Made by a program: the position numbers and the translations under genes. Below, piece by piece: positions 10,569 through 49,000 of a DNA stretch of 64,000 nt. The notes beneath the pieces were generated by a model that had not been told where the DNA came from, did no database searches, and saw only the letters and a list, made by a program, of their open reading frames with translations. The stretch is from Eledone cirrhosa (Eukaryota): the NCBI GenBank assembly GCA_964016885.1, contig OZ024746.1:16740001-16804000 (forward strand). The letters are read 5' to 3'. The stretch's first letter is position 1; each line of letters starts with the position of its first letter.

Positions 10569-13097
10569 ATGAAATTATATTGATATATAAAATATCAACT
10601 CGTTGACCATACATAAACCCTCAATGTCAATTTGGTGCTAAAATACCAAAAATCACACAAACACATTAATCCTTTTTTTTTTCATTAACCCTTCTTTTTA
10701 TCCTTCTCAGGGTGAAATTCGAATCAACCCCAAGGATTACAAAGACTGCTACATACCACATCCTGTGAGTTTATTCCTCTGTCTTATGTCATTTTTTAGT
10801 TATTGTAAAATGTAAACATAAACTTCTACATAATCCTCAAGGGCTCATAAGCCCCATTGTTATAGTATTAAGCCTTTTAATACTAAACCAGCTGAAACCA
10901 ACCCTGATTTTATGATACCCAACTGTTTATTTTAAGATGTTTATATTTATATAAAAACTTTCTGCCATAATTTTATGTAAGAACCTTTGTTAATTTATGT
11001 TCCAAACACCAACTTAATAGTGAGAAAGTTATTTTATTAAATCTCTTTAAATTGTTATTTTCAAAATGATTTCTAGTAGAAATGTTCCAGGCATTTTCTT
11101 TTTTCAAGCTGGGATTACATGTTAATTTTTACATTTTTCAAAACATTGTTAAAAACAAGAGTTATGGGTTCATACATAGATACAAAGCTAAATGGGGACA
11201 TACAGGGAATATGTAAAGGATCATAAAACAAAGAATGATTGTGACTTTAAAAATTTTCCTAAAAATATGTTCTTCAAACACTGCCTGTTTGTTGCCTGAG
11301 AATGAAACAACTAATAATATTCTCTTTAAATAAATTTCTTTAGGATGGACACTCAGATATCTACATCTGTGGCACCAAGAATCGTAACTCAGCCCTAAAC
11401 GGAGACCGAGTTCTTGTTCTCTTGAATGACAAAACTAAATGGAAGGTAAGTCTTTTTAATTATCATCGATCTCATACTCCCATTTCTTTTCCTCTTCCCC
11501 ATTAATACCTTTTTTCACTCTGGTAAGTATACAGTAATTGCCCCAGTGTTGGTGTGACATTGTGTAAATTGGTAGTACTGGTGCCATGAGAAAATACACC
11601 CAGTACACCCTGTAAAGTGGTTGTACTGGTGCCATGATAAAATACACCCAGTACACCCTGTAAAGTGGTTGTACTGGTGCCATGATAAAATACACCCAGT
11701 ACACCCTGTAAAGTGGTAGTACTGGAGCCATGATAAAATACACCCAGTACACCCTGTAAAATGGTAGTACTGGTGCCATGATAAAATACACCCAGTACAC
11801 CCTGTAAAGTGGTAGTACTGGAGCCATGATAAAATACACCCAGTACACCCTGTAATATGGTTGTACTGGTTCCATGATAAAATACACCCAGTACACCCTG
11901 TAAAGTGGTAGTACTGGTTCCATGATAAAATACATCCAGTATACCCTGTAAAGTGTTTGTACTGGTTCCATGATAAAATACACCCAGTACACCCTGTAAA
12001 ATGGTTGTACTGGTTCCATGATAAAATACACCCAGTACACCCTGTAAAGTGGTAGTACTGGTTCCATGATAAAATACACCCAGTACATCCTGTAAAGTGG
12101 TAGTACTGGTTCCATGATAAAATACATCCAGTATACCCTGTAAAGTGTTTGTACTGGTTCCATGATAAAATACACCCAGTACACCCTGTAAAGTGGTAGT
12201 ACTGATGCTATGATAAAATATACCTCAACCTTAGTAGGGAACCCCTTACTGCTGCTGTCTTGCATGTTTCTGTCATATATTTGTTGAGCAATAATGAATT
12301 TTAAAATGTTACTTGTTTATTCCAAAGGTAAATAAAAAAGAACTGGATTCCAATTTTACATCAGAGTCTGATGATAATGAAGGTATAGAACAGCTTCTTG
12401 CTAATACCAGCCTAACAGAAAATGACCCAGCTGCCAAAGATGCAAAACCTGGAGAAGTTTCTAGTTGTTCCATGTCACCCCAACCCTTGTTTAACAAAGA
12501 TGGGCCACCAATTACTTGTCGTGAAACTCCAGATGAGACAGGAGCTATTGCTAATGTCGATGTTAATCTTAAAAGGTACCATTTTAAATCATAGATGTTT
12601 TCATCAATGGATGCCAATTCATTGCAGTTAACAGCCAGTTGATACTGGTACTCATTTTTTTTTCAACTGAGTTGATTGGAGCAGTGGTAGATGGTCTGAG
12701 AATTGGACCCATAAGCCTACAATTGTGAGCCCAACATCCTAACCACTATCCATATGCCTTCACAAACCAAAAAATATAGTTGTATGTATGAACCTATAAC
12801 TCCTGGTGGAGTTGTAGGGACACTAGTGACAAAGAACGTTTGTTGGGTATTCTAAACATGGTGAAGCCCAGCTCTTCTCTATGTCTGAACAGAGCTGATT
12901 TCTTTCACAGTTAGCAAGAGAGTGATAGAGAGGAAGTGAGAAATAGGGGAAGAATTGTCTGCAGTATTGGATTTTATCGACCTCAAAATGATAAAAGGCA
13001 AAGTTGACCTCTGTGAGATTTGAACTTAGAGACCGAGAGCTGGAAAAATGCTTCAAATTATTCTATCCAACATTCCAATGACTCTGCTAATTTGCAA

Positions 13098-13145: not shown

Positions 13146-13231
<86 letters not shown>

Positions 13232-16200
13232 GAGGTTATATTTAATTAAAAAATTTTATAACTGATATAAAGCACTCAACAGAGAGTGGAGTAAATATAC
13301 AATATATTAATAAATGGAAACTATATTTGTAAAACCATATTTATTTTATTATACATATGATGAAAGCGCACCATAATTTGTCTTGGTTGCCCTTGAAATA
13401 TGTATAATAAAATAATAATTTTTTTAATAAATATAGTTTCCATTTATTAATATATTGTGTATATATATATATATATATACACACACATATACATATATAA
13501 ATACACACACATATACATATATCAATAAATAGGGTCATTAGTGCATCAGATTAAATGCTTCATGGTATTTGTTCCAGTGTTCTGACTTTCTGCTCCTCTC
13601 TGAGTTCAAATCCTACCACCCATCATTGCCTTTCATCCTTTCAGAGTTGATGAATTATCAGCCGAAGGTGGTTGACTGACAAAATTGTTAGAGCATTAGA
13701 CTTAATACCTTGTGGTATCTCTTTTGGTCATTTGCATTCTGAGTTCACTTAAAATGTCACTGACACTAAGCCGTATCAATTGTTACTTTCCTCTTGGACA
13801 GCATTGATGACATGGAGAGTGGAGACATACATTCATGGGGTGATTGCAGGTCTTTCACAAAAAGCTTTCCAGATGCAGATTCAAGATCTCATGAGATATA
13901 AGGAAGCCCCTGGCAAGTTTAAACTTAATATGTGTGTGTTTATTTGTGTGCACATAAAGTGGTTGGCATTGGAAGAACATCCAATTGTAAAAACCATACC
14001 AAATCTGGAACATATGGGAGCAAAACGTTGTCCTCAGCTAGTCTAGAAACAGAGTAGCTGTAATTATATACTGATTTGGTCTGTAATATATCATTTCACC
14101 TATGCCAGCATGAGTAATGATGATGATATAGATACCCCTCACACACACACATAAATGTATGTTTATGTATGTATTTGTATTTTAGGACTCCTCAAAAGAA
14201 AGATCTATCAGTGAAAAAATACACATCAGTTGGTGATCTAAACCAGGATGTCGACCTTCAGAAAGTATTGGAAGATCAAAATAAAGACATGTATATCCAG
14301 CGTACCGGGAAGGTAATAACATTTTGAAAGTAAAATAAAACACGTTAATAACTAACTTTTTTCTTTTTATCTATCTACTTGTATTTGTAGAGTTGGAAGG
14401 TCTGTCTGTCCTAACGTGATACCATGTGATTGTAGAGATATTGTGTTGAGTTGGAAGGTCTGTCTGTCCTAATGTGACGCCATGATTTTAGGGTTTCCTT
14501 GATACCATCAGTTCATTCATTTCTAGGTCAGCTTCTGGTCTTGTCGCCAGACATCCTTGTCTTATACACATGATGGGCTCCTATAAGCCCAACTCTTGGT
14601 CCTCATCCTCAGGGGTGGAAGCAGGCAAGGGATTGCTGAGTCTGGGCAATATAATGCATGGCTTATGTCACTTAGGTACTTCAAGTCATTTTCTTTGACA
14701 TTCTAACGAGTCTGCTAGTCCATTGCTCTAATTACTGTTATGACTATTTAGGTGTATATAAGACTAACTACAATATCATTGAGATATATATGAGGTCAGT
14801 TATGTCTAAGCTATTTTAGTGAAGACTAACTACAGTACAAATGAGATATATATGAAGTTAGTTATGTCTAAGCTATTTTAGTGAAGACTAACTACAGTAC
14901 CATTGAGATATATATGAGGTTATGTCTAAGCTATTTTAGTAAAGACTACCTACAGTACAATTGAGATATATATGAAGTTAGTTATGTCCAAGCTATTTTA
15001 GTAAAGACTAACAACAGTACCATTGAGATATAAACGAGGTCAGTTATGTCCAAGCTATTTTAATAAATATTTATTCTGTAGGTATTGTCAATTCTGGAAG
15101 AAAAACACCCCCGTAAATGTGTTGGTCACCTTGGTCCAACGAATAATAAAAAAGTTCGTTTTAACCCCATTGATTCCCGAATTCCAAGATTGTCCATTCC
15201 ACTTTCGGAATGTCCTAAAGGTAATTTTTGGATTTTTCTTTTGTTTCTTTTCTTTTATATATTTCATTTTTTTTCATTTTTATCTGTGGCTATCATGGGG
15301 CACCGTAAGTGTTCCCTGGATACTTGTATCCTTAATGTAACTAGCAAGGAGATTCACCATGACAAAATTTGTGCAAAGACTGGACCTTTGAATTACAGAT
15401 ACTGTTCATTCAATGGGCTTCCATTCAGTTTCTGTCTACACAATTTCACTCAAGGCTACAGTAAAAGAAACTTTTCACAAAGATCTTACAGTCCAAGTCT
15501 GTTCTTATTTGGAGTTACTGCCTGTCTAGATGGGTCAGAGGTTCACATCTCTCATACATTCCATTTCTGGCAAGGTTTCTGTGGCTGGATGCTCTTTCTA
15601 ACATCAACCACTTCACAGGGTGCATATGGTGTATTTTACCATGTCATGTCCTTGATAGGACTAAGGGCTTCTTTCAACCCTACATGTCCCTACTTGTTCA
15701 TCAATCACAGAGTGTTCATGGTGTATTTTATCATAGCACCAGCACAAGAGATGCTGTCGTGTCCTTAACAAAACTAACAACCCTTCTCTACCTTATGTTA
15801 TCTCTGATTATCAAGCAATTTACAGAAACAGTAAAATGCAGCAGATGTATAATTATAATGAAAGTTCACAATATTTTTCCCTCTGAGAAGTCACAAATGT
15901 ATATCATCGTATATCTTCTTGAAATTCCAGGAAGTACATAAATCCTGTGTTAATCAAACTTTGTCTTAAATTTCATAAATGATAAAAATAATTAATGCCA
16001 TTAATTAGAGCTAATTAGGAATTCTAATGATATATGTTTGTTATTTTGTTTTATTAAATCTTTATAATTTTTTTTTATATTTTAGAATATTTACAACGCC
16101 CAGAAGACTTTTCTAGAGTACTCTTTGTTGCCAAAATTCTCAACCAGAGTGCCTCAGGATCCCTGACACAGGGGTAAGTGTATTTCTTTATAAAACTAAC

Positions 16201-22200: not shown

Positions 22201-25200
22201 ATGCAAGAGAGGTTCTTAGAGAAGAATAAGCCACTATACTTAGCCTTTGTTGACCTAGAGAAGGCCTTTGATAGGGTACCCCGATCTGTCAGCTGGTGGT
22301 CCCTAAGGAAGCTAGGTGTTGAGGAATGGCTTGTGAGGACAGTGCAAACTTTGTACAGAGGTACTCTCAGTAAAGTCAGGGTAGGAATGGAGTTTAGTGA
22401 GGAATTCCAGATACAAGTAGGAGTACATCAGGGTTCGGTCCTCAGCCCGCTCTTGTTCATTATAGTCCTCCAAGCCATAACAGAGGAGTTTAAGACTGGC
22501 TGTCCATGGGAACTTCTCTATGCTGACGATCTGGCTCTTATAGCAGAATCAGTAGAGGAGCTAGAGAATAAATTCCGGCTATGGAAACAGCAGTTGGAAA
22601 CAAGAGGACTGAGAGTAAATCTAGCTAAGACAAAAGTGTTGATGAGTAGAAAAGAAGACAAAACCCTGATTCCGTCAGGGAAATGGCCATGTTCGATATG
22701 CAGAAAAGGAACTGGCATAAATTCTATAAAATGCACACAATGCAGGTCCTGGGTACACAAGAGATGTAGCGGGATAGCAGGCAAACTAACAGGTAGGGAG
22801 AAATATGTATGCAGTAGATGTACAGGGAAATTAGACAGTAGAAGTCGCACTGATAGACACATTTTTCAAATGCGAGAGGGCGCTATAGAAGTGGTGGATA
22901 GCTTCCGGTACCTAGGAGATCAGATTAGCATGGGAGGAGGGTGTTCCGAGGCCATAGTATCTAGAATAAGGACGGGTTGGAAGAAGTTTAGGGAGCTGCT
23001 TCCTCTGTTGACGAAGAAGGGTTTCTCCCTGCGTACGAAAGGCCGGTTGTATGATGCCTGTGTGAGAAGCACAATGCTGCATGGTAGTGAGACATGGACA
23101 GCAACCGCAGAGGATATGCGACGGCTGGAGAGAAATGAGGCAAGCATGCTCCGTTGGATGTGCGTGAACGACCCAGCATAAATGTGTTGAGAGAGAAACT
23201 GTGTCTGAGAGGGATAGAATGTAGTGTATGGGAGAGGAGACTGAGGTGGTATGGACATGTTATGCGCATGGAGGATGACCGATGGGTGAAGAAGTGCCAG
23301 GAAATGCCAGTTGAAGGAAGACGTGGTAGAGGTAGACCACGAAAAACATGGGCGGAGGTGGTGAGAACAGACCTCAGATCATTGAAGCTCACGGTGGAGA
23401 TGACGAGGGACCGTGGCGAGTGGAGAGATGCTGTGCTGAATAAGACTCGTCCCACCCTTGTAAGCAGGGAAAAGCGGACGTAAAATGATGATGATAATGA
23501 TATATGCTGGGCTTCAAATATAGTTTCCACCTACCAAATTCACTCCCAATGTATTGGCCAGCGAAAGTCTGTGGTAGAAAACATTACCCAAAGTGCCACA
23601 TGGAATACTTTATTTTATATTATGGCTACTCTTTTCCTTTGTAGATTAATTGAAGAATTCATGTTGCTAGCCAATATGGCCGTTGCTCACCGCATTCATA
23701 AAAGCTTCCCAGAGAAATGTCTTCTTCGGCGCCATCCCGAACCACAAACCAGAATGATTGATAGCTTGGTAAGATTATACTCACCCTTTGGATACCACTG
23801 AAACTGGCCCCTAGATCATTCTTGTATGATAGCTGATTTAAACTTTCTTTACATCATAACTTAATGTAAGACCTTTAAGTTGGGTTCCAAACACCAGTTT
23901 AATAATGATCATTTTCAAAATTAATTGAATATGATAATGAAAGGGATAAAATCAATATTTTCATTTTTGTCTTCCTTTTTTTTTAATATTCTTAGCAATA
24001 AAGTTGAACATGTGAAGCTTTGTAGTTAGGATGTTGAACAAAATCAATTTTATAGATGTGATCAACTTTTTTAATACCTACCCACCAATGATACAAAGCT
24101 GTCTATTTTAAAGTATTTTATTTAAACCTGATCTCAAAGTTATAAGAATCTGATGTTTGAAACAGCAGCTTCATAGTGGAAAATTAGTTATTTTATTAAA
24201 TCCATCCAAATCGTTGATTATTTAAAAAAAACAGAATTGAAAATATATGGACAATGTATTTTGTTAGAAATATGGTTATTAAAATAACCCTGGCTTTTGA
24301 AAAATTAGGTCCAGTACTTTTTCTGTGTTCTAACTAAGTGTTTTCTATTTCAGAATGATTTCTGTAAAACTACAAATATTGACATGGACATCTCCAGTGC
24401 TGGTGCCATTCATGTATGTACTCATTAATTTCTTGGATTTGTCTCATAAAAATAGGGTTATTGAGTGTTGATGGGGTCATTGAGTATAGATAGAGTTCTT
24501 AACCCTTTTGGCACTACTTTGGTTTTACGATACATTTTAAAATGTTCATACCTACCGTATATAACTCGAATATATGCTGACCCTATTTTATGTCTGTGAA
24601 ATGGGCAATAATCCAAACCTTGTTTATAAGCCAAGGCAGCTAATCAACAGATTAGATGGCAGTTTTGAAATCTCATAAGTGGAGAATATATTTATGAAGT
24701 TTTAATATTGTCTTAGGTTTACCTCTGATAGATTCCTTTGACTTTCAGAGCCAAATCATATCAATTTTCAAAAATAGTTTTGTCTCATTTTAAAAAAATA
24801 ATTTCTTTGCAGAAATCTCTATTGCAATACACAGATGATGATGATGATGAGTACTCCTTAGCAAGACTTCAGGTACTCATAGCTAAGTGTTCAAAACCAA
24901 TGAAAGTAAGTTTTACTCTTTTCATTATTCAGTAACAATAAAATAAAGACCAGTAATACACTGGGGTTCATATAATCAACTTTCCTCTCTCCACAAATTG
25001 CTGGTCTTGTGTCTAAATTAGAAATCATTAATTTACCATTAAAAAAAAAAATCAATTTCATTGCGTCTAACTAGAGAAAAACTGTCAAGTAGTATGGCTT
25101 CCAGACATACTAAACATATGATCTATACCAACAGTTCCTGGAATGGGGTCTCAAAATAGTACTTAGTGCATTAACTATAAAATTTGAGATACTTTGTTTA

Positions 25201-28200
25201 AATCATATATACCCACTATTGGGTATATGTTCTTCTCTAAGTATAAACTTTTCTCTTTTGGTTGTTATTCTTGCCATATAACAATTGTGGGGAGGGGTAT
25301 TTGTTGTGGTTGGGTTCTGTAGGAAAAATTAATACAAAGAAAAGGGATCTTTGATAGTGAAAATGTTGGGAACTATAGACTCAAGTTTTGGTTTCAATTC
25401 TTGAATAAAGCCATTTCTATTGGGGAAGACCGTCTAACCCATGCTAGCGTGGAAAGTGGACGTTAAACGAAGATGATGATGATGATCAAAAGTTATCAAC
25501 TCCACCACCACTAATTCCATGAAACTTACAGCGAGATAAATCAATAGTATTTAATTACTGAATGAAAATTAATGCCACTGTGCTGACTCCATACATAATC
25601 CATCATCTTCAAATGAACATGTAAGTCGTTAAGTATTGTACTGACATGTGTTCCCTTAATGAGGTTTAAGGATGGGTCTTTATATTACAGGTACAATTGT
25701 AGCTTTTCATGTCAGATGAATATTCCACAGACATGTGTACCTTTGATGAGACAACGGTCTACAGCAAGGATAGGTCTTTGTATTACAGGTACAATTGTGG
25801 CCTTTTCAACTGTTTCAACAACCCAGTTTCATTCACAGGACCTGGATCAATCTTAGCCTATAGTAAAAGACATCTGTCCAAGATGCCTTGGAATTATAAA
25901 TACATTCAGAGTTCAAATCCTGCCATGGTTAACATTATCTTCATCGTTGAAGTACTAATCAAGTACTGGGATTGATAAAATAAAGTACAAATTACTGACT
26001 CTTTGCCTAGATTAGAAATCATTATTATATGATTGGCAGTATCGGTAGAGGGTCGGACGCCATAGTTACGTCCCTTTACGATCTGAGCTCAAATCCCGCC
26101 GAGGTTGACTTTGCCTTTCATCCTTACGGGGTCGATAAAATAAAGTACAAGTAATGCACTGGGTAATTGCTGGCCTTGTGCCTAAAGTAGAAACAATTAT
26201 TATTATTTTTGGCAGTATCGGTAGAGGGTCAGACCCTTTATAATCCGAGTTCAACTTTGCCATTTATCCTTACGGGGGTTGATAAAATAAAGTACCAGTT
26301 ACCAGTCATGCACTGGGATCGATTTAATCGACTTTCCCCTCCCCAAAATTACTGGCCTTGTGCCTACACTAGAAACAATTATTATTATTAATGTCTGTTT
26401 TCCATTGTTACTTTGTAAGCTGGCTCAATACTTCTGTTCTGGGACAATAACTGACAAGAATGAATATCGACATTATGCTTTAAACGTTCCTCTCTACACT
26501 CACTTCACTTCACCCATTCGACGATATGCTGATGTCATTGTTCACAGATTGTTAGCTGCTGCCCTCAGTAAGATTTCACCTTTTCTAACATCTGAGGGAT
26601 ATGTGTGTGTGAATTGATGTTGTTTAACCCCAGGTTTGATCCTGGACTACATTACCGAATTAACAGCAATGCTAATAAAGCTTGGTTCATGATAGATGTG
26701 TATATGACAGGTTTGTATATAATAAACATACAATAGTTTTGCTATTATAATGTTAGACACATGTTTTGGGATTTTTATCCTTCATCAGTTATGTTTACTC
26801 ACTGCACATCTTGGGGAAAATGTGTTGGTTGGACCCAAGCTTTGTGAGTGAAATTGGGTAGAGAGAAACTATGTGGAAGCCCATCGGATGTACTGTTATA
26901 TATTGTTACATTGATTTGGTTTAGGAATTACGTTAATAAAATACACTGCCTGTAATTTTCAAATCAGTGAAAATAATCAAGAATTTGGAGGGATTTAGTA
27001 ATAAAACTAACTTTCTCATTGCCAGGTTGATGTTTGGAATATCCAGTTGATCAAACAGCTGAATGTTCATCATCAAAACAGGATATTTGTAATTATGTTT
27101 ACATACTTGTGATTAAACAGGTTACACACCACCTATCCAACAATCTGCAAGAGAGATGGAAAAACAGGCACAACACTGTAATGATAAGAAGACTGCTTCA
27201 AAACGTGCACAGGAGTTAAGCTGCGAAATTTTCCTTGCTGCCTTTATTCAGGTGAGTTCTTATAATATTTATAAAGTTAACTACTTACTTGCCAGAATTC
27301 TCTCACCTCTTTCTGTTCAAACCAGCTGATGTTATGGCATTGTTTTCAATATTATGTGAGATAATTATATAATAATAGAGTTATGTAAATACTAAAGGGT
27401 TAAACCACTCATCCAAGTTAAAACTTTCCATATATTTGTATGTTTTGTTGTTACAAATACAATCTTTTTTAATTAATAATTGAGTAAATCCCTCCAAATT
27501 CTTTATTAATTTAAATATTGTGTATTTCATTAGGAATTTGATAACAAAAAGGTTTATTTTGTATTTCCTTGGTTCCACCTCATGGTCAGTGGTGTCTTTT
27601 TGAAAAAAAAAAATTTGTTTATTCAAAAATGTTCTTTCATTTTAGGCCAGTGGTCCTTTATATGAGAAAGGAATGGTGATGGCTATCCTTAACCATGCCT
27701 TCGATGTATATATTCTCAGACTTGGTGTTGTTAAAAGAGTCTACTGCAACGTAAGTTGTTTCCTTTCATTTACTGTTAGAGCATCAAATTTTAAGTTTCA
27801 ATATTTGTTACACCTCTCTGCATTCTGAGTTCAAATCTCACCAAAGTTAAGTTTGTCTTTCATCCTTTTGAGGTCTATAAATAAAGTACCAGTCCATGTA
27901 CTAAGGTTGATTCTTCCTCTTTCTGAAAGAAATTGTCTTTGTTTAAACCTAGAGAAGAATGAACTCTGCCAAGTTTAAAATGTTCAAGACTTGCTTTGTC
28001 ATGACAGCACTGGGTGTATTTTAACATAACATCAACACTAACAGGTTGTCATGTTTTTGATGTGGCTGAAGAGTCCTCTCACCCCTATATTGGCATGGTT
28101 TTGATGGCTGGATACACATTCAAACAGCAAATGCAAGCTGATTAGTTACTTCAACATTCGTTATTAGAGTTCTTCCATATTTTTACCAATGGTGCAGATA

Positions 28201-28701
28201 TTTTGAATTGTTTTACAGAAATTAGATCTCCATACTCACACTGCATTCAAGAGGAAAAAACTCCCAATGTTGAGGCTTCACTGGAAAGAGAATGACCACA
28301 TGCAGGAAATTGGGATTTTTACTTTGGTTAAGTGTATTTTAAAGACAGATACAGAACCACTTAAATGGATGGTAAGTAACTTTACCTTCTAAACAGGTTG
28401 AACTCTTTCATTACTATATTTCTATTGAGATAAATAACCAATTATTTTTTAATTAGTTTGAAAATAAGTTAATTTAAGTATTATCTCTTGATTTTTAGCA
28501 AGAAATATATATCTAATTTTCTAAGGAGACAAACATCAAATGCACTCACACATATATATATCAGAATAAACTGTGGTCTTAGAGAAATTGTATGGCAGAA
28601 AAATGTATTTGACTTACATGATTGAAAAGTAAATGTAATTTAGTACTATAAAATTTTTTAATATATTATTTCAGGCTACGATAACTCATCCCCAACTGTG
28701 A
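4511..28701 (+). CDS. DIS3L2: DIS3-like exonuclease 2 (RNase II/RNB family 3'-5' exoribonuclease), 26 coding exons, about 1188 aa
   Basis: Phase-consistent GT-AG exons: 4511-5234, 7576-7727, 8711-8780, 10031(or 10094)-10206, 10392-10442, 10711-10764, 11344-11445, 12328-12575, 14186-14312, 15082-15220, 16086-16173, 17241-17340, 18169-18331, 18933-19045, 19854-19961, 20057-20125, 20531-20635, 21006-21142, 23645-23768, 24354-24413, 24813-24905, 26420-26567, 27121-27251, 27646-27750, 28219-28371, 28675-28701 (TGA). Motifs: CSD1 [24 protein letters not shown]; catalytic [14 protein letters not shown]; [59 protein letters not shown]; no PIN domain, as expected for DIS3L2. Exons 1-4 are linked on splice sites and phase only. 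Confidence 0.93.
6234..6420 (-). mobile_element. Young tRNA-derived SINE with 14-bp target-site duplication
   Basis: TSD ctgtatataataat at 6220-6233 and 6421-6434; B-box gagttcaaatccc; body ggttgactttgcctttcatccttacggggtcgataaaataaagtacc recurs many times in the window. Confidence 0.85.
6725..6806 (+). pseudogene. tRNA-Leu(AAG) pseudogene inside a TSD-flanked insert
   Basis: D arm tggccgagcggtctaag, anticodon arm CTGGT-TTAAGGC-ACCAG (AAG), long variable arm and T arm gtgggttcgaattccac are recognisable. The acceptor stem (GGTAACA / CACTGAC) has 4 mismatches, so it is unlikely to be functional. Confidence 0.8.
7175..7406 (+). mobile_element. tRNA-derived SINE (same family as 6234-6420, opposite orientation)
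   Basis: agggcagtggattgacagtatcggtagagcgtcaga..gagttcaaatccc..gcctttcatccttacggggttgataaaataaag..gtgcctaaagtagaaac, then an (ATC)n tail. Confidence 0.8.
11563..12223. repeat. 48-bp minisatellite, about 13.7 copies, derived from a SINE-internal segment
   Basis: Unit gtactggt(g/t)ccatgataaaatacacccagtacaccctgtaaagtggta; the same motif occurs singly in SINE bodies (e.g. 56885-56927, 16608-16650). Confidence 0.95.
13261..13460 (+). mobile_element. Penelope-like pLTR relic, fold-back palindrome around a broken hammerhead ribozyme
   Basis: 30-bp perfect inverted repeat 13299-13328 / 13429-13458. Centre: TGATGA (13358-13363), helix II aagcgcacca..tggttgccctt, GAAA (13395-13398), tatgta-TA, ataaaataa. 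Flanked by (TA)n; carries the agcactcaacag motif also seen at 36518. Confidence 0.65.
14760..15062. repeat. About 62-bp tandem repeat, about 5 copies, ending just before the DIS3L2 exon 10 acceptor
   Basis: Unit agactaactacagtacaattgagatatatatgaggtcagttatgtctaagctattttagtga, with starts at 14761, 14823, 14885, 14943 and 15005. Confidence 0.9.
16195..16295. repeat. About 35-bp tandem repeat, 3 copies
   Basis: taactcttacatgtatgaagt(g/a)ttgtttgagaaag repeated just after the exon 11 donor. Confidence 0.8.
16826..17212 (-). mobile_element. 3' fragment of an RTE-like non-LTR retrotransposon inserted in (TA)n
   Basis: ORF ..[60 protein letters not shown] is a typical RT C-terminal region with an internal deletion; TA repeats on both sides; ends 28 bp before exon 12. 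Confidence 0.8.
18355..18720. repeat. Compound TA/CA/CT minisatellite, about 40-bp unit
   Basis: Repeated tatatacacacttgtatacactctctctttttaaatata. Confidence 0.8.
19598..19874 (+). repeat. About 51-bp tandem repeat made of the DIS3L2 exon 15 splice acceptor plus exon start
   Basis: Unit aactaatgtctctctct..aaatctAG(g)ttacccctatgttacaccaatat; AGs end at 19606, 19647, 19696, 19748 and 19801, and the real acceptor ends at 19853 (followed by GTAATTCCTATGTTACCCCAA). Confidence 0.9.
21657..23500 (+). mobile_element. 5'-truncated RTE-clade LINE (reverse transcriptase with C4HC3 PHD-like insert), one frameshift
   Basis: ORF with [53 protein letters not shown] (22519-22530), FRYLG, LHGSETW. Frameshift near 23160 continues into [20 protein letters not shown]; (ATG)n tail at about 23485-23500; no endonuclease domain present. 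Lies in DIS3L2 intron 18. Confidence 0.93.
26031..26390 (+). mobile_element. Two tandem tRNA-derived SINE copies
   Basis: gattggcagtatcggtagagggtcggacg.. (26031-26206) followed by an internally deleted copy (26209-26390), each with an (ATT)n tail; same family as 6234-6420. Confidence 0.8.
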
Positions 28702-33900: not shown

Positions 33901-36900
33901 GGAAAGGAGGACACATACTCAATGGTAATATAGATGTCTTAAGTTAATGTAGAGATCTGTAGCCGGAACAAGGAACCAGCCAATCTCTCATCATTTCTCT
34001 CTCCGATCAGGGATACCTGCTAAGAGGCTTCAATGGATGTGCAATGTTAATGTGCATGAAAATGAAGCATGGATGAGCTGAGAGAGAAACCGGGAATAAG
34101 AGGAATCAGATATAATGTTTGTATATCTAAGTGATGTGTATGAATGATGATTTTGGGGTGAAGAAGTGCCAAGAAATTCCAGTGGAAGGAAGTTGCAGTA
34201 GAGTAAAACCAACGAAGACTTGGACACAAGTGATGAGAACTGATCTCAAATTGCTGAAGCTCACAAAGGAGAAGATGAAGGAAAACAATTGGAAGGAAGC
34301 TGTATCGGAAAATACCAGTCCAACCTATGCAAACATTGAAAAACATGTATGATTATGATTATAAAAAAACCACACAACAAAAATATAAGCCAATAAGGGA
34401 ACCTTTTCATAGCTGCTTGATTTGCTCGTAATAGCAGTCAACTCTCTTTCAAATTACATCATACAATCTTAAAAGAGAACATAGTCCTAGATGTCTGAAA
34501 AATAAACAAAATGGTCTGCTTGATCTGGACTAATCCAGGAGTCAAGAACAAAGGAAAACAAAACAAAAAAAAACATGGTCTTGAAAAATGGTTCTATAAC
34601 ACAAAATTGTTTATCTTCAAACATTTCATCATAATTTTATGGAAAACCCTTTATTAAATTATGCTTTAGAGACCAGCTGAATAATTAAAGAGTTAGTTAT
34701 ATTACTAAATCCCTCTATATATGGTAACAAAAGGGCTAAAAGCTAAAAGCTTACCTTTCAATTGTCATTCTCCTTCGAGAATCTTTGCAGGCCTGTAAGA
34801 TGACTTCTTTTAACAGGTCACTGGTTCTGAGAAAAATAGAATTTCATTAATAATTTTTATTTTAATTGGTACTGACAAAGATAAATGTAAAGTGCTCTTA
34901 ACTCCTGGCGGAGTCATAGGGACACTGTCTTGGGTACTTTAGCTCTTTAGCATTTATATTACTCTATTTTTATTATTATATTTTCAGGGTAAAGGCTTTA
35001 TAATATCAAATCTGAGATTTTGAGAACAATACCTTAACATCAGTATGAGTGGCCAGTTACAGCCAGTTTGAACAAAAAGAGGTGAGAGAATTCTGGCCGG
35101 ATATGGTTGGTTTAAATGCTAAAGGGTTAAAGTTGGTGGAGCCCATCCCTTCTCCAGGTCTAATCACAGTTGATTTCTTCCAAAGAGTGAGAGAGAGGAT
35201 TTAAGAAAGAGATATAGAGAAAGAATTGACCTAGTACTGGATTGGTATTTTTTTATCAACCTCAAAATGATGAATGGCAAAGTTGACTTCAGTGGGATTT
35301 GAACTCAGAGTGCTGGAATAAATACTGTAAAACAATCTACCAGATATTTTAATGACTGCCAATTTGCTGCCTATCTTAAATGATGTACAACATTTTTCCT
35401 CTGCTAATTACTGATCTTCTTTAGCCCACACTGTAAAGTGGTAGTGCTTGTGCCACAATCAAATGTACCCAGCTCCCTATGTAAAGTGATAGTGTTGGTG
35501 CCATGGGAAAACGAACCTGGTACATGCTGTGAAATTGGTGGTGTTAGGAGAGGCATCCAACTGTAGAACCCATGCCAAACAGGAATGAGCAAGACAGTCA
35601 TCTGATCTGCCTGTCTAGCGTCAGAGTGTGACAACCTGTCTAACCTATGCTAGCATGAAAAACACATGTAAAATGGTGATGATGATGTTTAGCCTTAGCC
35701 CCTAAGGAAGAACTTATTAATGATATACTCCTATGGACACCGTGCCATATATATACCTGTGCTGGCCATCCAGCAAAACCCTCCACTGATCAGCTCTGTA
35801 CAGACATGGGATGTTGCTCTGCTGACCTATTAAATGCTATGTGGGATCAAGAAGGTTGATTTAACAGAGTCAAATAAATCTGAGTAAGTTTAAGTAGTGT
35901 AACTGTTGAGAAAATAAAAATGTTTAAATGATTCTTACAAACCACACTTACTGGGATTCACTTTCTGAGTCTAATTCTGATGTTTCTACAAAAAATAAGA
36001 CAGAATAACTTTTTATTCAACACATATATGTACACACATCATCATCATTGTACCTCTTTATATATATATATATATATATATAGGAACGAGTAGGACCCCG
36101 AAGGCTGAGCTCGAGCCGTTTCGACGGCTAATTCTGGACTAAAGAATTAGCCGTCGAAACGGCTTGAGCTCAGCCGTCGGGGTCCTACTCGTTCCTATTA
36201 CCCACTCTACTACCCTAAGTATTGAGTACTCTGGTGCGTTATGGTCCACCTGGTTCCTTACCACATTTCCTCCGTTATATATATATATATTAGAAAGTGA
36301 GGTTTTTTTTACAAAATGAAAAATAACCGGTGTCCTACACGAGTGAAAGTATAAAGAAAAAAAGATGAAATCGAAAATGCAACTGGAGTCTTATAATAAA
36401 TATATATATTTTTTTAAAAGACTCCAGTTGCATTTTCGATTTCATCTTTTTTTATATATATATGTATGAGGTGAGTTTTATTGTAGCACAATAATGCAAT
36501 GCAAATATCGGATAAGTAGCACTCAACAGTTTATAGGACTGGAGTATAAATAATATAAAATCAAAAGATAAAATTAAAAGATGGCCATAATATAAAATTA
36601 AAAGATGGTCATATGGTCCTTAAAGGACAAAAATATTAACTACACCTCTTGGAGAAAGGTTTGCAACGCCTCTCCTTACCTTAATTCTTCCCTATCCAGC
36701 ACATGTAATCTCTGCCTAGCGGAGAAATTTACCATTATCTCTAATTTCAATTCTATAATAAATAGACGTACGGATTTATTTTCGCTCTGCTTGCATAAAT
36801 CCCATAGAACTTTTCATAAAGTATACAGCTAATATCTTACTACCTAATTAGTTTAAAATATCTTTCTCAAACACTTTTATATTTTTTACAAATATACCCA

Positions 36901-38804
36901 TCTTTCTACCTTATTTCAGTATATTATACAATATTACTCACACTATGTCGTTAGCGGTCCTCTAATTTTTCTTCTTTTTTAATTTCTAATCTTTAATCTG
37001 CAACTTTTACTTCTTAATTCATCTTATAACTCACTATAGCATTTTCCTTATATTCTCGGCCATACAAATTTTTATTTTTAATATTACCATTAGAGAAATT
37101 TTGTAAACATATTTTTTTTGACGTTATATATTTTTTCTTTCTTCTCTCTTTCCATGCTCGTATTAACTCTATTATTTACTTTTTCCTATTACAATACATA
37201 GAAACAAACTCGGACCCTAATTAATTCCTCTAAGTTCATAATTCATTTAACCTTATCTTCATTCACCTTATTTTCTTAATATATTTTATTTTAATAATAC
37301 ATTTTAATAAATTCCTTTTCGCACATCTTATTAAACCCTTCAATATATAAACCCTAAATAAATAGTATATTTAATTCCTTTTTCTTTAATCATAAGCATC
37401 ACCATTCATAAACCTCATTAACTTTTAATTTCTTAAATTTTTTTTAAAATTATGTATTACAACGGTTTTTTAAAATTTTTCTGTGAGACAGTGTTTCTCA
37501 GTATTAAAGGTTATCTCTCTCTCACCCATTTCCCCCTCCTCTCTCATCCTTCCTTCTTATACTCCTCCTCCGTCATCTTTTCCTTATTATTATATTTTTT
37601 TCTTTTATCTATATTTTTTCCTCCTCTACCTTACCTTTTCTTTCCCCCTTCCTTTCCTTTTTTCCAATCTCATATATCCATCTAATTTTATTTTTCATAT
37701 GTTGATTTGCCACTTCACTATTCGCAAGTGTTTTTTAAGCTTCATATCATGTCTCCCTATTTTATCTGATGAGAACGCAAATATCATCCCATAATGATAT
37801 TTGTTTTTGAAATGCGCATAATAAAATACATGAAACTCTTTCAACCATCTTTTGATTTTATATTACATATATATATATATACACACACAGGCATGGCTGT
37901 GTGGTTAAGAGGTTTGCTTTGCAGCCCTGTGGTCTTGGGTTCTATCTCACAGCATGGCACCTTGGGAAAGCCTCAGGTTAATCAATGCTTGTGAGTGAAC
38001 TTGACAGATGGAAACTGTGTGGGTGTGAGTCACCACAAACCTTATGTTGATTTATGAGCCTGCAGGAAGAGTTGCTTAAATCCTCCATTGACAATACTTC
38101 CTGTAGCATAGCAGTTCAACCAGAACTCGTGGTATATACAATACTTAGTATAAGAGCATCCAGCCATAGAAAAAATATCCAAACATTTATTTTCCTACTT
38201 ATAGAAAAATGGAAATAAAAACAATGACAATGATGATAATGATGCTGCTGAAGATGATGATGATACATCTTTCTAGGATTGGCACAAGGCCAGCAATTCT
38301 GGGGAAGAGGAAAATCAATATCTACCCTAGTACTTAACTGGTACTTTATTTTATTGACCCTAGAAGAATTGAAAGACAAAGTTCACCATGGCAGGATTTG
38401 AACTTGGAATGTACAGGGCTCTAACTATATGCTGCAATGTATTTCATCTGATACACTAGATGATGATGATCATGTATCATCATTCATCAGCATCATCATT
38501 ATGTAATTTATCAAATTATTCTCCAAATACCAGATAAAGTTTGTTATAGAGCTAATTCTTTCCAAGTTCTTGATTATTTTCCAACTCTCTCTTGTAAATC
38601 ATAGGCATCTTTTATTCAAAAAATCCCAACAAAAGAGCTAAAAACTAGTAAATGTTCTATAATACCTGCTTTTTCCAACAGTTTTTCATCTTTCAATCGA
38701 TTATGTAATGAGGATTTGATAATTAGTAACTTCTCTACATCATCCTCATTAAACAGTTTCTTATCTTTCTCAGAAAAAATGGACTCATCAGTTGATTCCG
38801 ACAT
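29310..38804 (-). CDS. CENPH: Centromere protein H (CCAN CENP-H/I/K subunit), 8 coding exons, 226 aa
   Basis: Minus-strand phase-consistent exons: 38804-38666 (ATG, MSESTDES..), 35985-35952, 34826-34755, 33448-33380, 31912-31846, 30579-30528, 30013-29911, 29454-29310 (TGA). Coiled-coil protein ending VFQYILQNLVTGSGINWAEDPALLAIML, matching the conserved CENP-H C-terminal motif (QNLILGSxVNWAEDPAL). An acceptor just upstream of 38821 implies a further 5'UTR exon. Confidence 0.85.
34035..34360 (+). mobile_element. Degenerate RTE LINE 3' fragment
   Basis: Translates to VKKCQEIPVEG..KTWTQVMRTDLKLLKLT, homologous to 23154-23483. Confidence 0.7.
34943..35126. mobile_element. piggyBac-type MITE, family B (TIR CCCTTTAGCATTTA)
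   Basis: Left ctctttagcattta, right taaatgctaaaggg followed by TTAA; related copies at about 8790-8992 and 27290-27403. Confidence 0.6.
36080..36276 (+). mobile_element. Penelope-like pLTR relic: 56-bp-arm palindrome centred on hammerhead helix II, plus tail
   Basis: Arms 36080-36135 and 36143-36198 (2 differences), 7-nt loop. Right arm is helix II, GAAA (36156), cggct..agcc, GTC (36176-36178), ggggtcc. Tail attacccactctactaccctaagtattgagtactctggtgcg; embedded in (TA)n. Confidence 0.7.
36357..36453. repeat. 36-bp perfect inverted repeat within the (TA)n element cluster
   Basis: aaaaaaagatgaaatcgaaaatgcaactggagtctt (36357-36392) versus aagactccagttgcattttcgatttcatcttttttt (36418-36453). Confidence 0.85.
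36466..37866 (+). mobile_element. 5'-truncated Penelope-like retroelement (GIY-YIG endonuclease C-terminus, 3'UTR, hammerhead-bearing pLTR, inverted pLTR piece at 5' end)
   Basis: ORF 36605-36832 IWSLKDKNINYTSW..ASPY..CNLCLAEKFTII..INRRTDLFSLCLH resembles PLE GIY-YIG C-termini (IWxLK..CxLCLxEK..NKRxE..CRH). Hammerhead at 37758-37828. Segment aatataaaatcaaaagat at 36552-36569 is the reverse complement of the 3' end at 37847-37864. TA-repeat flanks. Confidence 0.8.
37758..37828 (+). ncRNA. Type I hammerhead ribozyme (PLE-type, minimal palindromic helix III)
   Basis: Helix I tattttat (37758-37765) / ataaaata (37821-37828); CTGATGA 37766-37772; helix II gaacgcaaatatcat-cccata-atgatatttgttttt; GAAA 37809-37812; helix III ATGCGCAT; AUA triplet, predicted cleavage after 37820. 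Confidence 0.8.
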
Positions 38805-39070
38805 TATTGGCAACAGCAGATCTGAAAACAACAAAACAGTTAAATACTTTTTAAAAATGAAGAGAACTGATACATCTACACTAAAGAAGAGAACACCAGT
38901 TTTATAAGATACAGAAAGAATAGAGGTAGCATTATTTATAATTCTGCCAAAAACTATATTAATCTCAATATTGTAATTTTGGAATTAAGTACACAGTATA
39001 GCTGCATATCAAAAGTGGTGAGTGACTTCAACATGTCTGAAACTTCTCTTGGCTTTATCATACACAGCTG

Positions 39071-42548: not shown

Positions 42549-43223
42549 TACCGTGGAGTAAAGTGCTCCAAAACGAGAGATTTTACATAATGAAAGCTAT
42601 AGCCAAGAGAAGACATTTCTCACCCACCCCAAAGTGGGTGGGAGATCTCGCCGTCGGACGGGGAGAGTTGACACGTCTGCAAGTATTTCTATAATTTATA
42701 TTTAAAATAGAGGTGCTAGTGCATTTCAAGGTGAGTCCTTTACAATAAATTTCGAAATAAGAAAACGAAAATATTTCGTCTGATTCTCCAGATTCATGGT
42801 TGAAATACATGTTAGCGTTAATTAGCATCGTCTCTACCAAAATCATATGTTTATACACACACACACTCGCACCAACCGGAGGTATATGGTCTTTAAAGCG
42901 ATGAAATACCAATGAAGGTTGGCAGATCACTGATGAAGGACTAAATTTATTCATATGTAACCCATTTGCAACCACGCAGCACGCCACGCTTTCATATTCA
43001 TATATATATAAATGAAAGGTATAGAAATTGTTGTAGCGAGAAGCTAACAGTATTCCATAACATATACATATATTGTTATACTTGGGGAGGGTCATATTGT
43101 TGTAATAATATTGCCAGAAATAATAACAGAACACACTCAATGTTTGGTTGTTTTCGCTTCTGTATCTTTTATATCTCCATAGTTAATTTATTTGGCAATC
43201 AATGTTTATCATATATATATAAA

Positions 43224-43403
43224 GAGTCAGGACCCCGTCGGCTGAGCTTCGGCCATTTCGACAGTTCGGATCTAGCTGTCGAAACGGCCGGAGCTCAGCT
43301 GTCGGGGTCCTGACCCGTTTCCTATTACCCACTCTACTACCCTAGATATTGAGTACTCTGGTGCGTTATCGTCCACCTGGTATCTTACCACATCCTCTTT
43401 GTT
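43224..43403 (+). mobile_element. Second copy of the hammerhead-centred palindromic PLE relic
   Basis: gtcaggacccc..gacagtt-cggatct-agctgtc-GAAA (43281)-cggc..gct-GTC (43301-43303)-ggggtcctgac, plus the same tail as 36199-36276; TA-rich flanks. Confidence 0.7.
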
Positions 43404-46088
43404 ATATATTTATATAAATGGGGACCAAAAGATTACAACCCTGTCTGAGCGGTTTCTCTCAGCGTCTGTTTGTATGAGCAACACATACGAAATAAATCCG
43501 GCGTATCAGACGAGTTATTTTCATATTCCTTATTTCAAAATCTGTTAGTGATACTCGCTTGGGACCATCCACGAAAATTAATCGTGGTCTACCTTATTAT
43601 GAAACATAAACTTAAGTGTTGGGTTGTTGGAGATGACATAAGTTAGGAAGCCTCCACATGACCAATCGACCTGCTAGAAATAAGAGTAAAAAAAAAAATC
43701 GCCCAAATCACAAACCTTACTTTCTTAAAAGAGGAAGGATAATTAAATGTAGTCCTAGGTAACCCTTATCCCGCAGTGTCCAAAAATAACCCTCATAACC
43801 CTTAAGAAAACGAGCTGGAACACCTGTCATCAATACATTGAAACATTACACGATAGAGCAATACAATGAGACACTAAAATAATTTAGACCGTAGAATAAT
43901 GAAATAAAAATGTTGAAAATCTTTCTAAGAGAAATATTGAGATCTACTTACAAAAAGTTGTGAAGCAGGTTTTGAAAGTTTCTTTAATGGCGGTTAATTT
44001 TGAACAGACGGAGTTAGTTTCTGAAATAGAGCCGCATTTAGTTTCAGTTTCATTAATAATTGATGGAACATTTTAGATGTGTGAGTATATAATAATATAA
44101 TGAAAATTATTGTGTACAGTGCTCAGATGCACCACAACAAACAAAGTATAATCGGATTTTGATACTATATAGATAATAAATACATATTCTGAGTTATAAA
44201 GTGTCCAAAACTTAATATGTGGAAGAAGGTTGACGAACTTTTCACAAAACTTTGAACGTTTAAAAAGTTTAGGTTCGTCTCTTTTAATTCATTTTACTTA
44301 ACAAACTTTCTGCCTTATTATTTCACTATTTTGTCACTATATAAACATATTAATATTCATTTTAAATATTTTTTTGTCACCATTATATATTTAATAAACT
44401 CCTAATGAAAACAACTTTCATGACACTTTCTTTGAGATGATTCTTTTATATTCGTTACGAATTGCGTTTATTTCTGTCGAGTTTTAAGATATAAATTTGT
44501 ATATTTAAGATAGACAAGCTGCTTAAAAATATTTAAACTCTTCGTTTGAGATCCAAATCTCAGCAAAGTAACTTTTTCTTCCGATTCTTGTACAATTTTA
44601 TTTTATTTATTTTTTAATTTGTCAACGAAGTATATGACACACAGAACATGTTAAACACCGCCCCCTAATTTACTTGATAGATTGGTGGGTTCAAATTTAA
44701 GTTGTAATGTATATAATGAAATATGGATTTATCTAGAATTAAACTCGGATGACTGCCCAGTAGTTTATGGAGTTCAAACAAGTTTTTTAACCCTAGGTCA
44801 GAGCACGTCGAGCAGGCTTCTGATCAGAGGTATTCTAGCAGTGTCTATTTTGTCTTTTAAATCATAGTTTATCTCAGACTAGATTATCGACTATGACTTA
44901 ATTTTTTTCTTTTTTAAACTGTAAAGTATGATTTACCTGGCGATGAATTGAGTCGTTAGCACGTCGGATAGAATGTTTTGTGGTATTTGTTTCGACTCAA
45001 ATCCCGCCGTGTTCAACTTTACCTTTCATCTATTCAAGGTTGATAAAAAAAAAAGTACCAGTCAAGTACTGGGGTCAATTTTTCCTCTATATCTCTTTCT
45101 CATTTCCTTTCTCTCACCCTCTATATTCTCACTCTGTTGTATTCAGACCTGGAGAGGTGATGGGCTCCACTAGGTTTTAAAATGCCCTATGTCAATACGG
45201 CGCCAGAGAGATAACTCACCAATCTTGAAGATTCTGAAAAAAATAAGGGGTTATAGGTACTACCCTTTCTTCTCTGACCGAACGGTAAAAAAAAAGAAGA
45301 AAAAATATAATTGAGATAATTCAGTTTAACATAGGGCTGGTTTAACACTACCCTCTCCAATCATTAGGTACTGTTAGCACAGTTCACTGTATTCGTATCA
45401 AAGCTTGTTTTCCTCCCCGTCTACATTCTTCTTAAAGACATTGACCTACTCGTTTAGTCTACACAATGTCATATCAGTTATACACTATGGTCGGGAGCTG
45501 TAGACGTCATGGACACTGTCCCTCTTTCCCTAACTTTTGTAATATAATTCAGTACTACACGAATAAACTAATTAAGAGAAAGGGAACGTATGTAAGCAAG
45601 GTGTGAGGCCCCTGTCCCATCTGAGAGATCAGTAGCTCCAATAGGTCAGTGATGACCCATCAAACCCTTGCTAGCAGGGAGAATGGACGTTAAATGGTGA
45701 TGATTAGTGGTAAGAAACTCTCAGGAAAGCTGGACAGCATAAGGTCTTCAGAGAAGAAACCCCCTCTTAAGCAAGTGTTTCGGCCCTTGACTTCTTACAC
45801 ATCCAGATCATGACTCCTGGGTGCCCTTCTACTGACATTTAGCCATTTGGATATCGAAGACGTGTGTATGTAAATTGCATGGAGATTTTGTTGACAGGTT
45901 CTAGCTGGTATTCCTCTCTGTTATCCCTGCTTTCATTTAGTCCAATACAAAGTTTTCCATAATGAATAACAATAGAAACATTGGCAGACGATGGTGAGAA
46001 TGTCCTTACTATTTTTAACTTTGTTTTCTATTCTTTATTCAGTCTTTCCTATCTGGGCTTGAATCAGAGATGTTGATATCTTATCAGG

Positions 46089-49000
46089 ATGCAATCAATG
46101 TATAAAGAACGAGAATTTTCTTCACCTGCTCGTATACCACGTATGTCTAGTAGTTCTTTAAGAAGGGAGACCAGTCTAAGCTCTCCAACATTAACTGTAA
46201 CTTCTTCAGAGCCAAGACGAAGATTCAAGAAAAAAGAACCAGAAGAATTATCTTCAGAAATAGATTTTTGTTTAATCAAACAGAAATTTTTGGAAGAATT
46301 AGAATCAAAGACACCAATTGGTTATTCAAAGAAGATTGTGAGCCCTACTTTGGCACAATTACGACTTACTCCAGGTGAAAAAAAAATCTCTTTTTTAAAA
46401 TACTTTTTACTGTTGTTTTCATTATAGATTTTCAAGACATGGAGAATATCTCAGCAATTTAACTATATATGTCCCTAAACGAGGTGATAGACTATGTCTA
46501 CTTCCCTACTACAGTGGACTCTGTTAAAGACACCCAAGGTCCAGGTGATGGTGTTAAACAAGGTGATACCTTAAGTCTACCACCCTACTACATCACAGTG
46601 GACTCAAGGTTCAGGTGGTGGTATAAAACAAGGTGATAGGTTAAATCTACCACCCTAATGTATCACAATGGACTCTGCTAAAGAGACTAAGTGTTATCAA
46701 ATAAACGTTTTGAACCAATTTTTATGCTAAATAGGTTTAGACAGATATTTTCCTTTGTTTATCTACATAAAGGAAAAGGAAAGCTTTTTTTAACTTTGTG
46801 ACTATCAAAATATTAACTCTTTAATTGCTAAAAACCTGCTGGTATGGTTTTTATGACACATCACTTTTATGTGGAAAATGTGCTGGTATTTCTCTTACCA
46901 CCCACTCTTTCTATGACAAAGACATTGGCATGTTTTTATTTAGTTTGTGTAGCACAAATAAAGACAAAGCAAATGTAGTTTGAGGGCAATTTAGCTGTTA
47001 TTTTTAGCAGGCAGAGTAACCATGTAGCAGCTCCTTCAATGTCTCATTTTAACCCAGCAAGAGTGGAGTAGTAAGCAGTACAACTAGACATATGATCAAA
47101 GACATTTTAACTCAGCAAGAGTGGAGTAGAAAGCAGTATAACTAAACTTATTATCAAAGACATTCTAATCATGACCATCTCAGATTACAATATTTGATAT
47201 GTCCTCTTTTTAAGACAGTATGTTGTAGTTTACAAAAGATTTGACTGTTATTTCTAGTGTGTCAAGAGACTATTTAGATGCCTTCTTATTGGTTCATTTT
47301 TAATGGATGAGCCCCAGACGAACCATGAGAAATGAATTAATTTTATCATATGATGACACTCTTATCTTATAGGTCGGCCTGTTGAAGAAAAACGTAAAAT
47401 ACTCATTGATAAACATGCTGCTGCCAGACAAAATTCCAATAAACTTGCTGTTGGTGGTGGTGTCTCCATTTGGCCAGATATGGTGAAGATGAGGCTGAAC
47501 AGGCAGGACATATTCCAACTAATGGGACTTTTTATTATGCTAGTTTTCATTGCTGCCTACTTTTTTTTCAAAATCCATGGTAAGAACCTTTTACTACTTA
47601 AATATAGTAAAAGGGGAAGGTAGCAGAGTAGAGTAGGGAACAAAATACTTTATAAATTCAGACTACATTATCCAATGTGACCTTCCTTTTTTTTAAGACA
47701 TTAGGGTATAGTTTGAAAGAAATTTAGCTGCTGTTTTTGGCAGGCAGAGTAACCATGTATATCTATTTAGTTATAGTCTGAGTTCAAATTCTGTCAGGTT
47801 TCTTTTGTTCTTCACTTCTGTTACCTAGATGACTTAATCAGCAGTAGAGGAGGTTACTCTTAGTAACCAGAATAAGAATTGGGTAAAAAAGTTCAAGGAG
47901 CTGTTGCTACTGCTGGCAACAAAGAAACTATTTCTCTGAGCAAAAGGGAGATTGTATGATATTTGTGTACATATTGTAATGTTGCATGGTAACATGACAT
48001 AGGCACTGAATGCAGAGAATGTCTAAAGGTTGATAAAAATGAAGGAATTATGTTCCACTTAAAATAATTTAACAAACACCAGAGCTAACTGTGATTACTG
48101 AAGACAATTGTGCTGGATTTTTAGGAATATGTGAAGAAATGTGAATAATGAATAAAAAGTTAAACTGATGTTATTGGCTTTTGTCTTTGTTGTATTACAT
48201 ATAGTATGTAGTATACAGATTATTATATAGTTTTAAATGTATGTATATTTATGGCAATGTAGGGTGCAACAATGTCTTTATATAAAACTTGTAATCCTTA
48301 CAAAACTTTAAAATATTTACACTCTTTTAGAATTCTGTGACAAGTAATCACTGATGTCAAAGTCTGTCTATCAGTTTTCATTAAAAAATTGTTCCATCTT
48401 ACAGTAATGACAACATTGAAATTGACTTGACAATTAAGACAGATGATGACAAATTTGAGGAGAAAACTGTATACATTTGTCTCTTCTGTCAGGTCACACA
48501 TTTACCAAATTACAGCTATTTTCTGTGAAACTGAACAATTTTTCCATCAGCCATCCGATCTTAATATCATCTGATAACCACAAATTCCATAGCAGTGTTG
48601 TCTGCTGGCATACAGACTTTCTTCATTTGTTGGTGAGTGTTTCTTTGCTTTAAATTACATGTGAAATGGCCTAGTGGATAAAGTATTGGATTATAAAAGT
48701 CATAGGTGATGATCTTAGGAGAAATCCACTGCACATGACTGCTGCTCATGTCTCCAATACTAGAGACGTTGTCTTGCCCCTACATAACAAAAGGAGTCCT
48801 TGCCACTCTACATCATTTCCATTCTTTCAAGACAAAAGAATCCAAGAGTATGATATGAAAAACATGTTTAAATGCTACTGATAGAGATGATGATGATGCT
48901 AACATTTTTTAAAGATATCATCATTGCCACCACAGTTCAACATTCTTGACAAAGTTTCTCCACAATTCACAATTGTTCCTGGCAACTGCTCCCCACTGAG

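Follow-up and report, generated by a model that had tools for sequence, protein, structure and literature searches.

The window, a 64,000-nt stretch of the Eledone cirrhosa genome, contained DIS3L2-like exons on the forward strand at 26291-28389 (RNB and Dis3l2_C_term domains in Pfam) and an exon of an ARL2BP/BART-like gene at 59964-60287 (+). Exon-like open reading frames were also recorded at 46077-46427 (+) and 38616-38984 (-). The repetitive sequences included an RT-like ORF of a non-LTR retrotransposon at 21418-23483 (a 587 aa stretch), which from its motifs we take to be of the RTE type, and a ~45-nt tandem minisatellite at 11456-12316 that was open in several frames and had related units near 15.6 and 19.3 kb. 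Between 36.0 and 37.9 kb, three families of Penelope-like elements (PLEs) were nested in one TA array. In a long inverted insertion of another PLE at 36464-37870, a C-terminal GIY-YIG fragment (ORF 36602-36829) was joined to the antisense tail, and a 3' UTR and a canonical minimal hammerhead with CTGATGA at 37766 were also present.

The feature under study was a palindrome located ~7.7 kb beyond the last DIS3L2-like coding exon. In the initial annotation such hairpins were called intronic, which was not supported, as the DIS3L2-like exons ended at about 28,389 and no Pfam match was obtained onward to 46,600 in a scan of forward-strand ORFs of at least 36 aa at the curated cut-off. The 56-bp palindrome itself was confirmed. 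Two 56-nt arms, 36080-36135 and 36143-36198, were complementary at 54 of 56 positions (two mismatches) and were separated by a 7-nt gap; the RNA fold had an energy of -124.1 kcal/mol (z -17.5), equalled by none of 200 shuffles. On the left, the palindrome was bordered by a (TA)n target repeat at 36059..36082 and, on the right, by another at 36276..36290; TA runs also bordered other copies of the family.

Coordinates in the parent element were counted from the G of GAAA (0), negative numbers being upstream. The tail-less inverted arm (36080..36143, - strand) corresponded in antisense to the parent from +42 to -21. The tailed arm (36143..36277, +) represented -13 to +121 with 132/135 identity to a parent-type copy, A36143 being common to both. 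The tail-less arm was thus longer by 8 nt. The 79-nt tail (36199..36277, +) spanned the gap between the outer ends +42 and +121. The 7-nt sequence GGACTAA (36136..36142, -) had been read as the loop of helix II; it matched parent -20 to -14 in reverse complement and formed the unpaired inner end of the left arm. The tail-less arm would represent a cDNA begun at the inner RT start site.

The right arm was correctly recognized earlier as the 3' part of a type I hammerhead, here of the U3-A8 kind (36143..36183, +). It comprised the helix II 3' strand (36145-36155), GAAA (36156-36159), helix III (36159-36163/36173-36177) and the helix I 3' strand (36179-36183), with the predicted cut after C36178 at the end of GUC. 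The pair gacggctaattct/agaattagccgtc, however, was not the ribozyme helix II, since its left strand belonged to the inverted copy; the 5' strand of the parent was GCTCGGCTATT, followed by a 33-nt loop. The window copy was unable to fold as a ribozyme because the 5' half of the hammerhead core was absent, with the inverted arm standing in its place. An Rfam scan of the window at E<=5 gave no hammerhead match, and the canonical minimal motif at 37766 was missed as well. The diverged copy noticed near 43224 was found at 43221..43404 (+) and was assigned to subfamily B. Its tail-less arm extended to -5, its tailed arm began at -18 (A43263, an initiator-like A), and the two shared a 2-nt AG overlap.

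Copies were counted genome-wide by sequence patterns. The GAAA-helix III-GUC-GGGGTCC pattern gave 17,050 exact matches, and exact fold-backs of subfamily A were found at 11,139 loci of the 3.0-Gb genome. The parent core read ACCCC-(C/T)TGAGAA-G-CTCGGCTATT, then the 33-nt loop and the 3' strand (1,161 matches), and that of subfamily B read CCCC-TTGATAA-G with AGCTAGAT/ATCTAGCT (116 matches). Overall, the parental core was (C/T)TGANAA, a known U3-A8 variant. Hammerhead parents linked to RT/GIY-YIG ORFs did exist as anticipated, but not with the expected core, since CTGATGA followed by gacggc had no match in the genome.

The order within the parent was ORF, 3' UTR, hammerhead motif, tail and the next ATG, the hammerhead motif being placed in the pLTR in the sense of the ORF. 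In ORF-bearing copies the tail ran on for 98 nt to the ATG; therefore, the outer ends +42 and +121 were internal to the RNA. These two ends were fixed, and the same ends were obtained from contigs of three runs of one sample. The inner ends varied between copies, as foreseen for arms of variable length. Broken long copies contained an LYRDDGL-type RT core and a VIYQ...YIG (GIY-YIG) motif. Their ESM Atlas neighbours at 0.95-0.98 carried HTH_animal, with GIY-YIG in 48% of the members of one set; five broken ORF fragments gave no Pfam match, and PDB returned nothing of note. RW[K/R] and DKT were each present in 23/30 ORF-start loci, and the other Hydra-type motifs were a CxCX5C linker (CNCPDGSIC) and CxxC/CxH around E and N (CNLC..EE..N..CKH). 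Insertion into (TA)n was seen for family copies, and pLTRs in partial tandem, an inverted 5'-truncated copy and a one-sided tail were all present in the family. The parent was assigned from its motifs and the (TA)n target as an EN+ PLE, probably of the Hydra clade. The window palindrome is a short 5'-truncated insertion of this (TA)n-targeting PLE.

The parent sequence fitted the type I core C3/U3-U-G-A-N-G8/A8-A, GAAA and NUH. Among 26 parent rows, chosen via core-containing patterns, U3-A8 was present in 20, position N7 varied (G/T/A), and five were unpaired at 3-8, mostly as C3-A8. In helices I-III, 89.6% of cells were paired over the 26 rows, compared with 26-48% in slid controls. Three helix II pairs had changed on both sides, the two main changes being single events that separate subfamilies A and B. 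Pair-count measures were no better than those of shuffled sequences, and the minimum-energy fold came near a hammerhead in one of five single copies. Because most single-copy folds missed it, the hammerhead reading of the parent was based on motif and covariation. A major subfamily (parent loci L031-L060) had C3 with A8 (CTGAGAA), which is expected to break the 3-8 pair, yet it was widespread. This wide spread would fit a hammerhead cleavage that is dispensable for insertion.

The arms were compared in 81 subfamily A insertions with two arms, one of them tailed, the search pattern admitting centres of up to 70 nt. In 36 of these the tail-less arm reached further and in 31 the tailed one did, with 14 being equal; when a difference of at least 3 nt was counted, the numbers were 18 and 17, respectively. 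Long copies showed the same freedom, the tail-less arm being longer in seven and the tailed arm in nine by tens to thousands of nucleotides, up to ~3 kb (scored by eye). Only a tailed antisense cDNA can serve as the template of a sense tail, so two cDNAs were needed for about half of the insertions. Both arms of one insertion shared rare variants (6/11 doubletons versus ~4% expected); therefore, both were derived from the same source element. The junctions carried insertions in 43 cases, were blunt in 14 and showed microhomology in 24. An inserted sequence starting GC(TTG) after -17 recurred at L082, L100, L107 and L081.

It was proposed in the initial annotation that the nascent cDNA folds back at helix II of the hammerhead and self-primes, the ribozyme fold setting the inversion point; a fold-back at the apical stem was considered together with it. 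Such an event should preserve the parental loop and 5' strand, and the tailed arm, made first, should never fall short of the other. The centres of this family did cluster within loop II of the parent, whose helix II is extended and shows covariation, and templated re-copies at the junctions of L212, L230 and L186 showed that transient local snap-back takes place. The parental loop, however, was kept in none of the 81 subfamily A centres and in none of the 50 subfamily B centres listed. A targeted search for arms past -25 gave 187 strand-hits, against the 11,139 fold-back loci, and the loop was kept in 1-2 of the first 100. The tail-less arm often reached furthest, as it did in the window copy, which cis snap-back cannot yield; we regard this origin as very improbable.

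A fixed palindromic non-autonomous unit, either a MITE or a palindromic master copy spreading as such, would agree with the very high copy number and with some recurrent junctions (GAAC-A/T-GTTC in subfamily B). The copies were not of fixed length, though, and they did have parents with RT and GIY-YIG: 72 distinct centres were present among the 81 insertions, the ends were asymmetric, and a continuum led up to ORF-bearing copies. Identical junctions occurred in both orientations to the tail (4:3 in subfamily A and 3:3 in B). The recurrence in both orientations and the mostly distinct centres thus argued against a MITE or a single master. This explanation was refuted for the bulk of copies and is scarcely credible in general, a remobilised minority being conceivable. 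The earlier view of a PLE by-product rather than a MITE was upheld.

The inner ends of the arms were bounded upstream by a wall. In the subfamily A set, whose pattern admits centres of <=70 nt, the furthest end per insertion was at -17 to -22 in 63/81 and beyond -24 in none; the wall of subfamily A was blurred, at -11 to -22. In a sample of 90 loci anchored at the outer end, about 11/90 tail-less arms passed the wall; 62 loci were compared, 21 without a paired tailed arm and seven with large gaps being left aside. In subfamily B, where the pattern leaves out centres under 8 nt, both arms ended at -16 to -18 in about 28 of the 50 loci listed (by eye), and seven of these 50 reached -27 to -31.

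The longest run common to the loop II consensus of subfamilies A and B was TTAGT (-20 to -16). The consensus of an initiator is YYA(+1)NWYY, and TTAGT agrees with it. The wall would correspond to a capped Pol II start at an initiator-like TTA(+1)GT at -18. A second putative start would be TCA(+1)TTT at -22 in subfamily A, while that of subfamily B would lie near -29; this second wall also matched the 3' edge of the apical loop in both subfamilies. A cap-like C after -18 was present in 15/35 ends of subfamily A (p=0.15 against 1/3), many of which were explicable by the partner arm, and a DPE at +28 was not matched in A or B by eye. The base following -21 was A in 26/28 ends, in poly(A) runs. 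Runs of poly(A)/poly(T) of 13-40 nt stood at the junctions of L008, L028, L141, L149, L152 and L175 after -21, which suggests either that bases were added reiteratively on a UUU end or that an antisense RNA was polyadenylated.

Of the ORF-bearing sense arms, 16 reached -11; every one of them continued past -85 and none stopped at the wall. Therefore, the wall was the end of a template and was not a stall. It also followed that the simplest start-site model is incomplete, as ORF-bearing arms never started at -18. A general stall of the RT at structure was rejected as a candidate, with ~226/245 of the arms reaching -11 stopping by -25 in short copies (~8 of the 226 were variants that continue) versus 0/16 in ORF-bearing ones. 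Ribozyme cleavage as the main source of the wall was rejected too: just 4/279 arms scored ended at +21 to +24, and two of these were point variants. Separately, arms of L269, L004 and L256 ended at or beside the predicted cut site (+22/+23). In L269 both arms ended at or near this site and the sense arm entered the ORF, which hints that a cleaved RNA had served as template.

Two unrelated PLE families served as controls. A fold-back copy of family C, which has a canonical CTGATGA minimal hammerhead, was located at 13231..13462, and a copy of family D, with a TTGAAAA-core hammerhead motif in its longer copies, lay adjacent to the palindrome at 36291..36456. The relic at 13.3 kb was indeed an unrelated family, but it did not show the same geometry, since its right arm started inside the CTGATGA core and held all of helix II; most centres of this family were situated about 80-90 nt upstream of that core. 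Genome-wide, 200 fold-back loci of family C and 1,690 of family D were found. The ends of family C lay at YCA(+1)CTAT, 80-93 nt upstream of the core; 6/10 loci had a DPE-like RGWYV at +27/+28, and 4/5 unambiguous ends showed a cap-like extra C after +1 (by eye). Family D ended at CCA(+1)GATG, 42 nt upstream of the core; 12 of 50 rows listed had the +1/+2 junction, and no cap-like C was seen in those 50 rows. A junction with one arm to +1 and the other to +2 was common to all three families.

Because the centres of families C and D were far from helix II, helix II does not set the centre, and the clustering at loop II held for the first family only. As judged from the sequence motifs, the geometry is tied to a putative initiator-like A rather than to helix II. 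The link with helix II is a coincidence of where the RNA 5' end of this family falls.

We proposed that two cDNAs, each running off the RNA at its fixed 5' end, are joined head to head to form the palindrome, which we hold to be fairly probable. Both cut strands of the (TA)n target would prime cDNA synthesis, and the cDNAs would start at the two internal start sites of the element, which define the tail. Each would run for 60 or 140 nt to the capped RNA 5' end in loop II. The two cDNA 3' ends would then be end-joined, with nibbling, additions of A or short templated re-copies. The 5' core of the hammerhead would be missing as the RNA never held it, and the palindromes would be dead-end by-products formed anew at each insertion. 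With a start inside loop II, the transcript of the element would be devoid of the 5' half of its catalytic core and so unable to cut itself at its 5' end. For the ORF-bearing cDNAs, a tandem or circular RNA must be assumed as template. In L1 twin priming, both target strands also prime reverse transcription and the inversion is joined by microhomology, as proposed here; L1 copies non-overlapping parts of one RNA, whereas here both cDNAs would copy the same stretch, resulting in a duplication.

Two cDNAs could also be formed on an RNA whose 5' end arises by processing, through an endonucleolytic cut in loop II, a 3' splice site at TTAG or a block at a branch point. TTAG (-20 to -17) can also be read as a 3' splice acceptor, subfamily B has CTAAT (-34 to -30) beside its second wall (-27 to -31), the second wall follows the apical loop in A and B, and no ORF-bearing arm begins at -18. 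Furthermore, the Penelope intron of D. virilis ends at its hammerhead (PMC4209133). On the other hand, the wall of family C (YCA-CTAT) has neither an AG nor such a loop, arms of the present family enter the would-be intron as far as -22, and the centres have no common exon-1 sequence. A processed end was consequently given a small though appreciable chance.

Alternatively, a run-off cDNA may form a hairpin at its own 3' end, followed by a nick and rejoining at the centre, or self-priming may involve an antisense RNA. Such events would yield symmetric small deletions and insertions, and the poly(A) runs at -21 agree with a polyadenylated antisense template; self-priming on an antisense template was proposed for rotifer PLEs in PMC3846280. 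Perfect palindromes with a 0-nt loop persisted at L072 and L069, however, long copies had tailed arms that were shorter than their partners by up to ~3 kb, and the sense-strand initiator motifs agreed with the wall in three families. We consider this origin improbable.

The run-off of two cDNAs at a fixed 5' end leads to a wider proposal, for which the chances are slightly below even. If PLE inverted insertions arise by double target priming with run-off at the capped start, palindrome centres would locate PLE promoters with single-base precision in whatever genome they occur. The loop II promoter of this family would split the ribozyme, so that the element's own mRNA is unable to cut its 5' end whereas downstream or read-through copies can, and most insertions would be palindromes of 60+135 nt. 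The three unrelated families of one genome, with thousands of independent junctions, provide a base-level test of the origin of PLE inversions. At this level either arm may be longer, and the centres lie at an initiator-like A wherever it falls relative to the ribozyme. The ribozyme-guided snap-back idea can be dropped. If the start-site reading is true, a promoter is nested inside a ribozyme and the double-strand priming of PAc in vitro is tied to genomic inversions. The more than 11,000 near-perfect palindromes of 55-65 bp could also give rise to much dsRNA and many cruciforms.

Insertions with an inverted pLTR and a tail have been published, as have hammerhead pairs on opposite strands, and self-priming at PLE inverted junctions was earlier proposed in PMC3846280. 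In the literature covered, which took in a minority of subscription papers, no report was found that ties PLE inverted junctions to helix II, to transcription start or to a loop II promoter. The origin of the tandem and inverted PLE structures was named an open question in PMC8557442. An internal Inr/DPE promoter is described in the pLTR of Penelope (PMC2377424).

The closest experimental system is PAc, a Poseidon element of Anolis, which in vitro cleaves and extends both target strands and has an AT-rich target (Frangieh et al. 2024, PMC11167929). Its two internal start sites, which define the tail, lie downstream of the hammerhead, and its insertion does not need hammerhead cleavage. The family described here resembles PAc in the tail, bounded by two putative internal start sites, and in the AT-rich target, and the extension of both strands would be common to the two. 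The ORF of PAc starts inside the hammerhead, whereas here it starts 98 nt after the tail; the cDNA ends and the origin of inverted junctions are outside the scope of that work, as far as its covered part goes.

The C-terminal EN+ PLEs of the Hydra clade (Craig et al. 2021, PMC8557442) share with the present family RW[K/R], DKT, CxCX5C and CxxC...CxH around a conserved E and N. They also share the C-terminal GIY-YIG, (TA)n insertion, the pLTR hammerhead and the inverted 5'-truncated copy with a one-sided tail. The tail is 79 nt here, compared with 30-40 bp described there for PLEs. The present family differs by its core, which is U3-A8 or C3-A8, by its long loop II and by more than 11,000 minimal palindromes.

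The PLE hammerheads of Cervera and De la Pena (2014, PMC4209133) are likewise type I in pLTRs with U3-A8 core covariation, and pairs on opposite strands 100-700 bp apart were reported, which resemble the family studied here. The hammerhead described here differs in a full 5-bp helix III, in a 33-nt loop II with a putative promoter inside and in the C3-A8 of the major subfamily, which should break the 3-8 pair. Finally, the head-to-head PLE palindromes of Arkhipova et al. (2013, PMC3846280) are similar in their inverted pLTR, junction palindrome, optional tail and initiator-like pLTR sequence. Self-priming on an antisense template is favoured there, whereas the present junction statistics speak for two cDNAs that were templated by sense RNA and reached its fixed 5' end.
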